A stretch of 62,603 bases of DNA, the filler included. It is 9 parts of 9 records of this genome, joined end to end, with 100 filler letters (N's around TTAATTAATTAA, not from the genome) between each part and the next. Parts side by side here need not be neighbours in the genome. Positions count along the whole stretch, not along the records: positions 1 to 5,890 come from SRR20825010_433; 8 more parts are not named here. The stretch is one strand, 5' to 3'. Both the position numbers and the translations under genes were made by a program. The notes below the pieces were generated by a model. It had not been told where the DNA came from. It saw nothing but the letters and a program-made list of their open reading frames with translations, and did not search any database. Below are positions 1,026 through 17,281 of the stretch, in pieces. The number at the start of each line of letters is the position of its first letter. Position 1 is the first letter of the stretch.

Positions 1026-2195
1026 ATGTCATTTGAAATTCTCGAGACAGAAACCCAAGGGACTGTCATTAAAGTTGTAGGTGTAGGCGGCGCAGGCGGT
1101 AACGCGGTGGCCCACATGATTGCGCAAGGCGTGCAAAACGTTGAATTCATTTGCGCCAACACCGATGCACAGGCCTTGGCGAAAACCAAAGCAAATGTGC
1201 TCATTCAATTGGGTAAAACCGGTTTGGGTGCAGGTGCCAAGCCTGAAGCAGGCCGTCAGGCAGCTGAAGAAGACCGTGATCGCATTCGCGACGCACTGCG
1301 TGGCGCGCACATGGTATTCATTACTGCCGGCATGGGTGGTGGTACTGGCACAGGTGCTGCACCTGTGGTGGCCGAAGTTGCCCAGGAACTTGGCATTTTG
1401 ACTGTTGCAGTGGTGACCAAACCTTTCGAATTTGAGGGCACCAAGCGTTGCAAGGCGGCTGAAGAAGGTCTGGAAAAATTGTCCAGCAAAGTAAACTCCC
1501 TGATCATCGTTCTGAACGAGAAGTTGCTGGAAGTAGTGGGCGACGACGCAACTCAGGAAGACTGCTTTATTGCAGCCGACGACGTGTTGCACAACGCCTG
1601 TGCAGGCATTGCTGAAATCATCAATGTCGAAGGCAATGTGAACGTCGACTTCGAAGATGTGAAAACAATCATGTCCGAAGTGGGCAAAGCCATGATGGGA
1701 ACAGCCACTGCCAACGGCCCCGAGCGCGCGCGCGAAGCGGCCGAACAGGCGATTGCCTCGCCGCTGCTGGAAGGCGTTGATTTGTCGGGTGCCCGCGGTG
1801 TATTGGTCAACATCACTTCAAGCAAGAGCCTGAAGCTGAAGGAAACCAAAGAAGTGATGAACATCATCCGTGCCTACGCGGCTGAGGACGCCACCGTGAT
1901 TTTCGGTACGGCCTACGATGAAACCATGGGCGACGACTTGCGCGTAACCGTGGTCGCCACCGGTTTGGGTCGCAAGGCCGCCAAACCCACATTGGTACAG
2001 GCTGAGCAGTACCAACCCATGGCGCGCACCGGTACGTTCGACGCAGTGGGCGGGCAACATGGTGAAACGGACTACGCTATTCCAGCGGTGTTCCGCAATC
2101 CACGCGACAACGCAGCTTCACGCGTTCAAGCTTTGCAGGACAGCGGAATGGACCGGTTTGACATTCCCGCGTTTTTGCGTCGTCAAGCGGATTAA
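1026..2195 (+). CDS. ftsZ: Cell division protein FtsZ
   Basis: GVGGAGGNA, tubulin signature GMGGGTGTG, NVDFEDV, C-terminal peptide DIPAFLRRQAD; SD AGGAGG upstream. Confidence 0.99.
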   Translation: MSFEILETETQGTVIKVVGVGGAGGNAVAHMIAQGVQNVEFICANTDAQALAKTKANVLIQLGKTGLGAGAKPEAGRQAAEEDRDRIRDALRGAHMVFITAGMGGGTGTGAAPVVAEVAQELGILTVAVVTKPFEFEGTKRCKAAEEGLEKLSSKVNSLIIVLNEKLLEVVGDDATQEDCFIAADDVLHNACAGIAEIINVEGNVNVDFEDVKTIMSEVGKAMMGTATANGPERAREAAEQAIASPLLEGVDLSGARGVLVNITSSKSLKLKETKEVMNIIRAYAAEDATVIFGTAYDETMGDDLRVTVVATGLGRKAAKPTLVQAEQYQPMARTGTFDAVGGQHGETDYAIPAVFRNPRDNAASRVQALQDSGMDRFDIPAFLRRQAD

Positions 2196-2348
2196 TTGCT
2201 TCTGACATGAAGCAAGACACAAGCGATTCATCTTCCGAGAACGATTTCGGGGGGTGAGTGTCCTATCAGCACCCTTGGCGGTTTGCGGGTGAGGTTTGCA
2301 GTTTTGCCGAAGACTGTGAACTCGCGACCTGCCGGGGGCGCTTGTGTT
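2196..2348 (+). ncRNA. Putative structured RNA element (small hairpin plus three-way junction) in the ftsZ-peroxiredoxin intergenic region
   Basis: Hand folding: 7-bp hairpin 2196-2215; P1 2216-2225/2339-2348; P2 2226-2240/2245-2259; long P3 2272-2305/2310-2338; 14 G-U pairs on + strand. Confidence 0.6.
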
Positions 2349-2382
2349 GGTGTATTTTTAAGGTTTTAGCGGAGAAGTAAAG

Positions 2383-2886
2383 ATGACAATTCAGATTGGT
2401 GAAAAGCTGCCCAACGCAACCTTGTTCGAGTTCTTTCATGAGGAAACCGAGGGCTGTTCACTGGGCCCCAACAAGTTTGAGGTAGAAAAGGAACTGGCCA
2501 ACAAAACTGTTGCAATTTTGGCCCTGCCTGGGGCATACACCCCAACCTGCTCCGCAAAACATGTGCCTGGCTTTATTGATCACTTCAATGAATTCAAAGC
2601 CAAGGGCGTGGATGAGATTTGGTGTGTTTCCGTGAACGATGCGTTCGTGATGGGCATGTGGGGTAAGTCCCTGGGTGCCGAAGGCAAGGTTCGCATGATG
2701 GCCGATGGCTCTGCCGAGTTCACCAAAAAGCTTGGTATGGAATTGGATTTGACTGCCCGTGGCATGGGAGTGCGTTCCAATCGCTATTCAATGCTGGTTA
2801 AAAATGGCGTTGTTACCCAGTTGAATGTCGAGGCGCCCGGTGTATTTGAGAACAGCACGGCTGAGAAATTGTTGTCTCAGATTTAA
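2383..2886 (+). CDS. Peroxiredoxin, Prx5/redoxin family
   Basis: PGAYTPTCSAKH peroxidatic motif (PxxxTxxC), SVNDAFVM, ADGSAEFTK, RSNRYSMLV. Confidence 0.93.
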   Translation: MTIQIGEKLPNATLFEFFHEETEGCSLGPNKFEVEKELANKTVAILALPGAYTPTCSAKHVPGFIDHFNEFKAKGVDEIWCVSVNDAFVMGMWGKSLGAEGKVRMMADGSAEFTKKLGMELDLTARGMGVRSNRYSMLVKNGVVTQLNVEAPGVFENSTAEKLLSQI

Positions 2887-3032
2887 GAATTAACTGTAAA
2901 AGATGGGTAAATTGTGCGATTTTGCGACATTTTTACCCGTTTTTGACCCTTATTGGAGTTTGACCTCCACGAAAAATCTTGGGTTGAACAGTCCGGGTGG
3001 TTACACTTCGATGACAATTCAAGGAAATTTGA

Positions 3033-3953
3033 TTGAAACAGAGAACCCTAAAACAAGTGTTAAGTGCTACAGGCATTGGCTTGCATTCCGGCAAGCGAGT
3101 GACAATGACGCTGCGCCCCGCGCCCCCCGACACCGGCATTGTGTTCAGGCGCGTCGATTTGCCTGAGCCCGTGGATTTTCCGGTGAATGCGCTGGCGATC
3201 GGCGACACGCGCATGGCCTCTACACTAGAGAAAGATGGTGCCAAAGTTTCCACCATTGAGCACTTGATGTCCGCCCTGTGCGGTTTGGGCGTAGACAATG
3301 CGTACATTGATTTGACGGCTGTCGAAGTGCCGATCATGGATGGCAGCGCGATTTCCTTCGTGTTTTTGATCCAGCAGGCCGGCTTGGTTGAACAGTCTGC
3401 CCTGAAGAAATTCATTCGAGTCAAGAAAGCCATCGAAGTGCGCGAGGGAGAGGGTGCCAGCCTGAAGTACGCCAGCTTGAAGCCCTATGATGGTTTTCGT
3501 CTGAAGTTTGAGATTGATTTCGGGCACCCTGCCATCGACAAAACCGGGCAAATGGTGGAAATCGACTTTTCCCGCACCTCGTTTATACGCGACATCGCTC
3601 GGGCCCGTACCTTTGGCTTTACTCAAGATGTAGAAACATTGCGCAATCTGGGTTTGGCTTTGGGGGGTAATTTGGACAATGCCATTGTGATGGATGAATA
3701 TCGCATCCTCAATTCCGATGGCTTGCGATATGACGATGAGTTTGTAAAACACAAGGTGCTGGATGCGATTGGAGACCTTTATGTGATTGGTCACCCCATC
3801 ATAGGGGAATATCAGGCCTACCGCTCCGGTCATAATCTCAATAACCAGTTGATTCGGGCTTTAATCAATGATTCAACTGCGTTTGAAGTTGTTACTTTTG
3901 AAAGTGTCAGGGAAACTCCTACTGTATTTCGGGCCGATTGGGCGGTTGCCTAA
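3033..3953 (+). CDS. lpxC: UDP-3-O-acyl-N-acetylglucosamine deacetylase LpxC (TTG start)
   Basis: [46 protein letters not shown]. Confidence 0.98.
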
Positions 3954-4008
3954 CCGTGCATTCGTAAAATAGTATTAAACATGTAGCAATCTGGTAGTTC
4001 CCTTGTGG

Positions 4009-4458
4009 CTACTTGATGTTGTGGTGTTTGTTCAGGGCTTGGGTGGCCTCTTTCAGGGGCGAATCTTCAAGCCGGTTTTCCAGATCCAGCCATGCTTTTT
4101 TTGCGGCATCTGAGAAAACAGCTCTTTTGGGGCGGAGATCCAGTTGTTTCGAGACCAAGGGGTTTGTTTGTATTTGTAGCTGAATATCGTTTATATTCAT
4201 GCCCGAACCCTGCAGATGTTGAATCAGGCTGGGTAAAGATTGCCTCAGGCGCGTTAGCGCCGCCGGGGTCGACACGAAAATTTTTAGTTTGTCTTTTTTG
4301 ATTGGCCCCACGCTGAAAGTTACGCCACGTAAGGATGGCCAATTGTGGATGATCTTTTCCAGACGGCGAGATTGTGCCGCTTGGGTGATCAAGGAGCTGG
4401 TTTGTGGTTCCTGCATCAGGCTAGCCAAGGGAGATAATGCGGAATGCTTGGGTTTCAC
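4009..4458 (-). CDS. DciA/DUF721-family protein
   Basis: Size and antisense position between lpxC and M23/secA match the usual dciA position; AALTRLRQSLPSL helix; weak sequence support. Confidence 0.6.
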   Translation of the reverse strand: MKPKHSALSPLASLMQEPQTSSLITQAAQSRRLEKIIHNWPSLRGVTFSVGPIKKDKLKIFVSTPAALTRLRQSLPSLIQHLQGSGMNINDIQLQIQTNPLVSKQLDLRPKRAVFSDAAKKAWLDLENRLEDSPLKEATQALNKHHNIK

Positions 4459-15780: not shown

Positions 15781-15956
15781 TTTGGCGTCCTGGTTTTAGA
15801 TTTTTTCAGTTATTTCAATGATTTGTGCGTTTAAAAAGTCGCGCGCTTAATCTGAAAACAGAGGGTTGAAACCTAGTGGGGGCCGGACATATACTCCGGC
15901 CGCTCGAAAAGGGCAGAAAGCTTGCCTTTCATCAGCCTTTGTCGTGGAGGACCGGG

Positions 15957-16373
15957 ATGAGCGTCACTTTGCCGCCGGACTATACGCCGTCGGAAGACGA
16001 AGAGTTTATGAATTCAAAGCAGCAGGAATATTTCCGGCAAAAGCTGCTGAAGTGGCGGGCTGAGCTTCTGCACGAAGCGAACGAGACGCTGAGCCACTTG
16101 ACCCAGGAAAATCTGCAGAAGCCAGATATGGCTGATCGCGCCTCGCTTGAGACGGATCATCAGATCGAACTGCGAACCCGGGATCGTGAACGTAAGCTGA
16201 TCAGCAAGATCGATGCGGCGATTCAGCGAATCGAGGACGGCAATTACGGATATTGCGAAGAGACGGATGAGCCGATCGGCTTGCGGCGTCTTGAAGCACG
16301 CCCGATTGCGACTTTGAGCCTTGAGGCTCAGGAGCGTCATGAGCGCCTTGAACGGACACATCGCGACGACTGA
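15957..16373 (+). CDS. dksA: RNA polymerase-binding protein DksA (one-Cys type)
   Basis: DEEFMN..YFRQKL, DMADRA coiled-coil tip, YGYCEETDEPIG..RLEARP.ATLSLEAQ. Confidence 0.95.
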   Translation: MSVTLPPDYTPSEDEEFMNSKQQEYFRQKLLKWRAELLHEANETLSHLTQENLQKPDMADRASLETDHQIELRTRDRERKLISKIDAAIQRIEDGNYGYCEETDEPIGLRRLEARPIATLSLEAQERHERLERTHRDD

Positions 16374-16399
16374 TTGCGATTCATCCGTATGACATCATA

Positions 16400-16435
16400 A
16401 AAAACGGGCCGTTCCTTTTGGAGAGGCCCGTTTTT
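16400..16435 (+). terminator. Intrinsic terminator after dksA (possibly bidirectional)
   Basis: AAAAACGGGCC...GGCCCGTTTTT. Confidence 0.75.
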
Positions 16436-16479
16436 GTTTTGCTTATGTCACTGGCGTGATCGATGCGCGATCAGAATAG

Positions 16480-16508
16480 AACCGGGCGGTAAATTTTACC
16501 GCCCGGTT
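16480..16508 (-). terminator. Hairpin after flgH
   Basis: AACCGGGCGGTAA / TTACCGCCCGGTT inverted repeat. Confidence 0.6.
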
Positions 16509-16516
16509 TTGTTGGA

Positions 16517-17281
16517 TCAGAAGGGCATCAGGATTTCGAGAGCCTGGGCACCGTAGCGCTGCTGCTGCAGATCGGAAATCTGGCCGCGGCCACCATAAGC
16601 GATGCGGGCTTCCGCCATTTCGTCATAACTGACGGTGTTCTCTGCCGTGATGTCTGCTGCCCGGATTACGCCACCGACAACAATCTCGCGCACTTCCATG
16701 TTGACCCGAACTTCCTGGCGGCCGAACAGCACCATATTCCCGTTCGGCAGCTGCTGCGTAACCACGGCGGCAACGCGCAGGCTGATGGTCTCGTTCCGGT
16801 CAATCCGGCCACGGCCGTCATTCGTCATGCTTGAGTCCAGATCCACAAGACCTGCCCCCGTGGTCCCTTCGGCGAAAACGTCGCTCAGCAGGGATTCGGC
16901 TCCGAACAATCCGTTCAGGCCCAGGCCATCCGAATGTGTGCGGTCATGCCGGGTGCGGTTATCGATCGCTGCTTCGTCCGCGATCTCGACAACCACCGTG
17001 ATGATGTCGCCGACCTGGCTGGCGCGCTGATCTTCGAAGAAAGCGCGGGAGCCTTCAACCCAGAGCGAGTTGGCCTGCCGGGTGGCTGTTACCGGGGCCG
17101 GCATCGGCATGGAAACCGGCCGGTAGTTACTCGCCTGCGTCGGGTTCTGAATTGCAGAGAGTTCCGGGGTTTTGCCGATGTCTGCAAGACGTTGGAAGAC
17201 GTTGCAGGCACTCACAGACATGCCAACCAGGGCAACAGCTGTGAGGCGGGAGAGCAGAGCGGGGAGGGACTTGTTTTTCAT
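16517..17281 (-). CDS. flgH: Flagellar L-ring lipoprotein FlgH
   Basis: Lipobox VSAC, NSLW..FFEDQRASQVGDIITV, LPNGN, AEARIAYGGRG. Confidence 0.97.
   Translation of the reverse strand: MKNKSLPALLSRLTAVALVGMSVSACNVFQRLADIGKTPELSAIQNPTQASNYRPVSMPMPAPVTATRQANSLWVEGSRAFFEDQRASQVGDIITVVVEIADEAAIDNRTRHDRTHSDGLGLNGLFGAESLLSDVFAEGTTGAGLVDLDSSMTNDGRGRIDRNETISLRVAAVVTQQLPNGNMVLFGRQEVRVNMEVREIVVGGVIRAADITAENTVSYDEMAEARIAYGGRGQISDLQQQRYGAQALEILMPF

Follow-up and report, generated by a model that had tools for sequence, protein, structure and literature searches.

We describe here a structured RNA of about 133 nt which lies between ftsZ and the peroxiredoxin gene prx and which folds as a three-way junction. 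The window in which it was found is the whole stretch of DNA analysed, 62,603 nucleotides with filler included, in nine parts joined end to end. The structure is real, belongs to the RNA level and is specific to the + strand, since covariation among its homologues exceeds that of the controls and the folding z-score is lower on the sense strand. Among the sampled genomes searched the element is restricted to the genus Limnobacter. The motif is new and well supported, and as a structured RNA it is of a familiar general kind, that of the cis-located bacterial mRNA elements.

The dcw/ftsZ cluster is one of the most conserved and most studied operons of bacteria. In the window ftsZ is separated from prx by a spacer of 187 nt (Table 1). 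The prx product matches the Pfam domains Redoxin (PF08534, E = 9.6e-36) and AhpC-TSA (E = 1.7e-7), and the use of this protein as a query yielded 36 loci for comparison. By sequence identity the window is assigned to Limnobacter or a very close relative, because its prx is 96% identical to that of Limnobacter MAGs and its FtsZ is 100% identical to that of genome G001.

Table 1. Genes and RNA features around the ftsZ-prx junction (positions along the window).
Feature	Position	Strand	Remarks
ftsZ (389 aa)	1026..2195	+	NCBIfam TIGR00065, E = 3.1e-118; upstream of the RNA element
7-bp hairpin directly 3' of the ftsZ stop	2196..2215	+	Folded; clade-specific, outside the conserved element
P1, 5' strand	2216..2225	+	10 bp with 2339-2348
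P2 hairpin	2226..2259	+	2226-2240 with 2245-2259, 15 bp, loop ACGA
J2/3, single strand of 12 nt	2260..2271	+	Unpaired in the MFE
P3, long arm	2272..2338	+	Base helix, 5'-side bulge, tip, GCCG loop at 2306-2309
P1, 3' strand	2339..2348	+	Pairs with 2216-2225
U-rich linker with the prx Shine-Dalgarno GGAG (2371-2374)	2349..2382	+	Conserved, near-constant length
prx, Redoxin-family peroxiredoxin (167 aa)	2383..2886	+	Downstream of the RNA element
Terminator-like hairpin with flanking A- and U-tracts	2896..2946	+	From the MFE; just after prx
lpxC, next gene 3' of prx	3033..3953	+	NCBIfam TIGR00325, E = 7.5e-118

Every structural detail that had been proposed in a sequence-only reading of this DNA, from the 7-bp hairpin through P1, P2 and the 12-nt strand to the long arm with its GCCG loop, is present in the sequence. 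The MFE of 2216-2348 contains 53 pairs (23 G-C, 16 A-U and 14 G-U), in exact agreement with the 53 pairs, 14 G-U, one mismatch and one 5-nt bulge counted there. The 28 pairs of P3 are broken by those two irregularities, the U/C mismatch at 2282/2328 and the bulge at 2291-2295. The predicted preference for the + strand was borne out by dinucleotide shuffling of 2196-2348 on both strands: the + strand folds at -79.5 kcal/mol (z = -6.83, with none of 200 shuffles as stable), against -44.3 kcal/mol for the - strand (z = -1.47, 17 of 200 shuffles as stable). The same holds in all six divergent homologues, where the sense z-score (-3.2 to -8.7) lies below the antisense one (-0.85 to -5.7), and the antisense fold is the poorer in all seven sequences compared. 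The hairpin next to the ftsZ stop is indeed where it had been placed, but it is found only in the window and its closest relatives (L001, L002 and L303) and forms no part of the conserved element. In this clade the 8 nt that follow the ftsZ stop (2196-2203) are also complementary to the 3' part of the prx Shine-Dalgarno region (2374-2381), and the MFE of the full spacer pairs these two segments instead of forming the local 7-bp hairpin; this pairing is clade-specific and predicted.

When the + strand of the window was scanned with 140-nt sliding windows, the element ranked third of 1785 by GC-corrected energy, after two windows over a canonical terminator pair near 16.4 kb. That pair, at 16374-16516, comprises two canonical bidirectional intrinsic terminators with G+C-rich stems and A- and U-tracts, placed between the convergent ORFs 15876-16373 (+) and 16517-17281 (-), and it is the most structured stretch of the window + strand (z = -6.3 for 16330-16600). 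It illustrates the form that terminators take in this organism.

In all Limnobacter-type loci with the motif, its homologues lie at the same place between ftsZ and prx. They were found in L001-L015 and, in the same context, in one more genome locus (L112) and in four metagenome loci (L211, L232, L296 and L303). A covariance model, R1, was built from ten close sequences (alignment A1) and used to align 15 elements, including the strongly diverged L011-L014 and L112, so that this alignment is fitted to the model. In it 94.3% of 696 cells form standard pairs, compared with 83.1% in shuffles, none of 500 of which reached as high a value, and 29 of 50 pairs are changed on both sides, compared with 12.9 in shuffles. 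Sliding the 3' partners by 1-3 columns lowered the pairing to 37-49%. Changes on both sides affect 5 of 9 pairs in P1 and 8 of 14 in P2. Because the 15-sequence alignment is model-fitted, the count was repeated, free of model fitting, on a MAFFT-only alignment (A5) of the junction strand and P3 in 17 sequences. Here 13 of 23 pairs are changed on both sides and 93% of cells are paired, whereas the slid controls give 34-52%. The changes concentrate in the base of P3, where they affect 11 of 13 pairs; of the 10 pairs of the tip helix, 6 show no variation. The compensatory changes above controls that generally mark a conserved structured RNA are thus present, as is the structural conservation in relatives that had been expected. 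P2 varies in sequence and length across the genus and appears to be absent in L012, whose MFE lacks it; judged from that fold P2 is dispensable. The model-fitted alignment also lets P1 overlap the end of the ftsZ coding sequence in L012, an overlap that we discarded, the MFE of L012 not reproducing it.

Only two features never change, while P1, P2 and the P3 base are rewritten between species. One is CCTATC (CCUAUC in the RNA; 2262-2267) in J2/3, and the other is C.GTTTTGCCGAAGACTG at the P3 tip (2299-2316, 18 nt); both are invariant in 17 of 17 sequences. Besides the GCCG loop the tip takes in base-paired positions, among them a fixed U-G pair, and the invariant unpaired letters are those of CCUAUC and of this loop alone. 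The 5'-side bulge below the tip helix is always present, with a variable sequence. NusB/E boxA, OxyR-box and sigma-54 patterns were compared by eye with J2/3 and the tip; none fitted, and their key positions are not conserved.

The two flanks of the element behave differently. In 13 sequences the stretch from P1 to the prx ATG measures 30-35 nt with a mean pairwise identity of 0.77, and that from the ftsZ stop to P1 measures 17-29 nt with a mean identity of 0.36. The element thus keeps a fixed register, 30-35 nt before the prx start codon, and its distance to the ftsZ stop varies, although the conservation of the 3' flank may merely reflect a ribosome-binding region kept for its own sake. Among the cis roles that had been suggested, a link to prx is therefore favoured over a pure stabiliser of the ftsZ 3' end, since the register with the prx ribosome-binding site is fixed and the distance to the ftsZ stop is not. 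As had been noted from the letters, no U-tract directly follows P1: the T-run starts at 2355, and in the window and 12 other main-clade sequences it begins 6-7 nt after P1. A consensus scan of 1700-4200 gave neither sigma-70-like promoter nor terminator, and by eye no conserved -10-like or -35-like strings were seen in or beside the element. Just after prx, the same hairpin with a T-run (Table 1) occurs in the window, L003, L008, L010 and L011 (5 of 8 Limnobacter loci), other hairpins taking its place in L012, L013 and L014. The transcript to which the element belongs probably ends at this predicted hairpin (2896-2946), which also suggests that no gene follows prx in that transcript and that the expression of lpxC is separate. 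The prx-lpxC spacer (2950-3032) holds blocks conserved across Limnobacter, with a short hairpin and a T/G-rich stretch, and these blocks may be an lpxC promoter or leader.

The element occurs once in the window. A second covariance model, R2, found exactly one match per genome in 5 of 5 Limnobacter genomes and matched 4 of 151 sampled family genomes, all at Limnobacter-type loci; the core-only model R3 matched 2 of 151 sampled order genomes, again all Limnobacter-type. Each Limnobacter genome contains a single exact copy of the tip 14-mer, and the one-mismatch matches of this 14-mer number 13, compared with 14 for the control. A dispersed repeat (MITE, REP or BIME) was rejected on this one copy per genome and on one-mismatch tip matches at the control level. 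Thus the folding z-score is strong, the structure is conserved and the copy is single, and none of the findings that had been named as contrary to the sequence-only reading was obtained. In a genome contig database of about 1.2e12 bases the exact 16-mer of the tip is also present in many unrelated phyla, among the matches listed; among those listed outside Limnobacter it sits in coding sequence without hairpin or junction motif, as chance predicts for about 1.2e12 bases. The same search gave at least eight loci with the right context (L042, L043, L048, L070, L075, L099, L112 and L145), and a metagenome search for the junction-plus-tip pattern gave, among the matches listed, six loci with at least four pairs of helix extension, four of them genuine. 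Two further loci labelled Limnobacter differ. L018 lacks the element and has instead a textbook intrinsic terminator (about locus 1440-1487), some 15 nt before the prx start, so that expression of prx there must rely on read-through or an overlapping promoter. In L033 there is only a hairpin with a bulge, similar to the P3 tip in its loop region; as a degenerate homologue it is borderline (13.4 bits, E = 0.086 in a 28-kb search) and was not counted.

The structure had not been recognised as a named family when it was read from the letters, and Rfam 15 (4227 covariance models) agrees. Between 1900 and 2700 nothing matched at the element with E <= 10, the search returning just two irrelevant weak matches outside it; there was no match in the whole window at the gathering threshold and none in eight related loci at E <= 0.1. 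Literature searches did not find a description of the element, and the motif name 'ftsZ-DE' had no occurrence in the papers listed by a whole-word search. The main text of PMC5737381 contains no mention of ftsZ, Polynucleobacter, peroxiredoxin, lpxC or Burkholderiales; its motif listings are placed in supplements outside that main text and may bear on novelty.

Other genera fill the same slot differently. Polynucleobacter-type loci (L016, L017, L019-L023, L025-L032 and L035) have another conserved element between ftsZ and prx, at about locus 1385-1500 (alignment A4). In 15 sequences it shows a 22-nt invariant core, forming a loop, inside a covarying helix, four of whose pairs have altered on both sides; outside this lies a short helix that stops a few nt short of the prx Shine-Dalgarno, and Rfam gives no match. 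It shares with the Limnobacter element the slot, the covarying helix around an invariant core and the end near the prx Shine-Dalgarno, whereas sequence and architecture are unrelated and models R1 and R3 do not detect it. We consider it a candidate for a separate RNA motif. The presence of an unrelated conserved element in the same slot hints that RNA-level control recurs at the ftsZ-prx junction within the Burkholderiales. In L168 (minus strand) a 387-nt ftsZ-prx spacer is filled by a very long near-perfect hairpin (MFE -247 kcal/mol, z = -10.95), which may be an inserted inverted-repeat element. L165 and L168, which belong to two genera, have in common a block about 60-75 nt upstream of prx, in which a -10-like hexamer is followed by a conserved leader; it looks like a dedicated prx promoter, and Limnobacter has none at the equivalent place. 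The L165 spacer has z = -2.4, and that of L172, 64 nt long, has z = -1.4.

Taking the above data together, we propose, with reserve but as a plausible reading, that the element is a cis-acting intercistronic platform within a dcw read-through transcript, where it would be recognised by a trans-acting factor that sets the processing, stability or translation of prx. A common message running from ftsZ through the element to prx, and ending at the terminator-like hairpin after prx, is the most probable arrangement; it is the simplest reading because of the pattern of the flanks, the lack of promoter or terminator matches in the 1700-4200 scan and the hairpin after prx. The covarying P1, P2 and P3 base would form a scaffold that presents CCUAUC and the P3 tip, with its U-G pair and GCCG loop, and that keeps these invariant features at an unchanging distance, 30-35 nt, ahead of the prx start codon. 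CCUAUC and the tip would be bound by a putative factor acting in trans, a protein being the likeliest candidate and a ribonuclease a possible one; once bound, this factor may determine how the prx mRNA is processed, how stable it is or how it is translated, separately from ftsZ. We favour specific recognition because a passive stabiliser or a generic RNase III site needs no invariant strand, no invariant tip and no constant distance to the start codon. Protein-binding mRNA leaders and operators, such as the ribosomal-protein leaders, offer a category for comparison. The element is similar to them in being a scaffold with few fixed positions, with a wobble pair inside a helix, just upstream of a ribosome-binding site; unlike them, its motif does not recur elsewhere in the genome and it matches no Rfam leader. 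A second site of the tip, which would point to a shared regulator, was not found elsewhere in the Limnobacter genomes searched.

Intercistronic hairpins that stabilise or direct the processing of mRNA are found in the Rhodobacter puf operon, in the malE-malF REP elements and in the RNase III sites of phage T7. Like them, the element is a stable structure between two cistrons, with long near-perfect duplexes at which an exonuclease could be blocked or RNase III could cut, and it likely has a role in giving adjacent genes different expression levels. It may accordingly be passive, an RNase III substrate and/or a barrier to 3' exonucleases which separates the fates of the ftsZ and prx mRNAs without a dedicated regulator, a possibility that we regard as real, if doubtful. 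P3, at about 28 bp, and P2, at 15 bp, are near-continuous duplexes, and P3 as modelled reaches the roughly two turns of near-continuous double-stranded RNA that characterise an RNase III substrate. Unrelated structures occupy the same spacer elsewhere (the Polynucleobacter element, the giant hairpin of L168 and the terminator of L018). In B. cenocepacia, as stated in the excerpted text of PMC7761207, no RT-PCR product joined ftsZ and the prx-like gene, even though a terminator is not predicted there; the junction is therefore also a transcript discontinuity or a reverse-transcription block in this relative, and separate transcription of ftsZ and prx is possible in relatives. However, a passive role leaves unexplained why the 18-nt tip, with its paired positions and U-G, and CCUAUC are invariant amid rewritten helices, and why the distance to the prx start is fixed. 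Moreover, structure at this site is not universal, as the low z-scores of L172 and L165 indicate. The known stabilisers are simple hairpins, often repeated and little constrained in sequence; the element differs from them in being a single-copy three-way junction with an invariant strand and tip at a fixed distance from a start codon.

The remaining explanations are less probable. A riboswitch or thermosensor leader, in which a small molecule bound at the junction, or melting of the junction, would alter the accessibility of the prx ribosome-binding site, is quite unlikely, even though the element resembles three-way-junction aptamers in having a junction closed by P1, directly upstream of a ribosome-binding site at constant spacing, and a junction strand that is conserved. 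In 7 of 11 main-clade sequences the U-rich linker is paired in the MFE to the purine-rich Shine-Dalgarno region, but this masking is weak and is missing from the window, L002, L010 and L011. Likewise, GGUGU after P1 could pair with ACACC at the J2/3-P3 boundary, with variants on the junction side compatible with wobble pairing, but the changes in this putative pseudoknot are transitions on one side alone, apart from one in L008 that breaks it. Just 6-8 unpaired nt are conserved, little for a ligand pocket and fewer than is typical, though compatible with a riboswitch. No Rfam riboswitch matches at E <= 10, and an expression platform of mutually exclusive pairings with the Shine-Dalgarno or a terminator gains no support: the masking hairpin and the pseudoknot both agree with the sequences but show one-sided changes only. 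J2/3 pairs with the Shine-Dalgarno no better than shuffles do in 15 sequences, and the anti-SD model, in which J2/3 would pair with the prx ribosome-binding site, was discarded (the fraction of shuffles as good was 0.05-0.93, and pairing in the window is poorer than the mean of the shuffles). We give little probability, too, to the idea that the element is cut from the ftsZ 3' UTR as a trans-acting sRNA with the invariant single strand as seed. The relevant comparisons are the enterobacterial sRNAs derived from 3' UTRs and UpsM, the dcw-associated sRNA of Rhodobacter, which derives from the 5' end of the dcw cluster and not from downstream of ftsZ. Similar to these, the element is linked with a strongly expressed mRNA or with the dcw cluster, lies directly 3' of a highly expressed gene and carries a short single strand, here of 6-8 invariant nt, which is flanked by stable hairpins like an sRNA seed. 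Unlike them, P1 encloses the whole molecule and in the window clade no terminator or U-tail follows it. Sites complementary to the seed at ribosome-binding-site distance numbered 15 in five genomes, compared with 10 for the reversed control, in a test limited to exact 8-mers and ATG starts; just one site recurs in distant species, and it is no target, being the reverse strand at the start of a conserved gene. In the window clade the terminator hairpin with U-tail of Hfq-type sRNAs was not found, nor were their conserved targets, the target test being narrow. Of the sequence-only reading, a genuine conserved RNA structure was upheld, and the narrow test of the excised sRNA showed no conserved target. 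The junction-strand 8-mer also occurs in L318, L319 and L321 (about locus 1500) at codons 3-5 of a conserved gene whose N-terminus looks AcnB-like; this is probably a coincidence. It is highly unlikely that the element acts as an intrinsic terminator or attenuator and closes the dcw transcript behind ftsZ. In L013 and L014 a T5 run follows P1 at once and an A-rich stretch precedes it, L112 has an extra hairpin with a T-rich tail between the element and prx, and L018, without the element, has its terminator at the same place. A G+C-rich stem with a U-tract within 0-2 nt is, however, present only in L013 and L014 and in the separate L112 hairpin, and not in the window, where, as in 12 main-clade sequences, 6-7 nt intervene; the 1700-4200 scan found nothing, though this genome does use canonical terminators (16374-16516). 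Where a terminator is present it lies less than 30 nt from the prx start, with no room for a separate promoter, so that read-through must feed prx. Finally, a DNA-level feature, such as a protein-binding palindrome or a promoter, or else a dispersed repeat, is hardly conceivable and already largely refuted. The P3 tip is an imperfect DNA palindrome, and in other genera L165 and L168 have their promoter-like -10 motif, with similar letters before it, upstream of prx; against this, the 14 G-U pairs among the 53 turn into A-C mismatches in the complementary strand, the antisense folds worse in each sequence compared, the compensatory changes keep the RNA pairing and not the DNA sequence, no sigma-70 consensus appeared in the scan, and the copy is single in each genome.

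Confined to one genus, the element is a solid new RNA motif and not a general principle. It is a covariation-supported, single-copy RNA at exactly the ftsZ-prx junction, the distal end of the dcw cluster, and its two invariant features give a concrete handle for its study. A further and unlikely reading would make it the founding member of a new cis-regulatory RNA class, a protein operator or a riboswitch, which would sense a cellular signal through CCUAUC and the U-G/GCCG tip and gate prx at the end of the dcw transcript, the Polynucleobacter element being analogous and independent; if true, the transcription of the division operon would be linked to peroxide defence in Burkholderiales. Returning to the platform that we propose, if a factor does bind the invariant features, the element would show by what means a gene for peroxide defence is tied to the expression of the division genes or kept apart from it.
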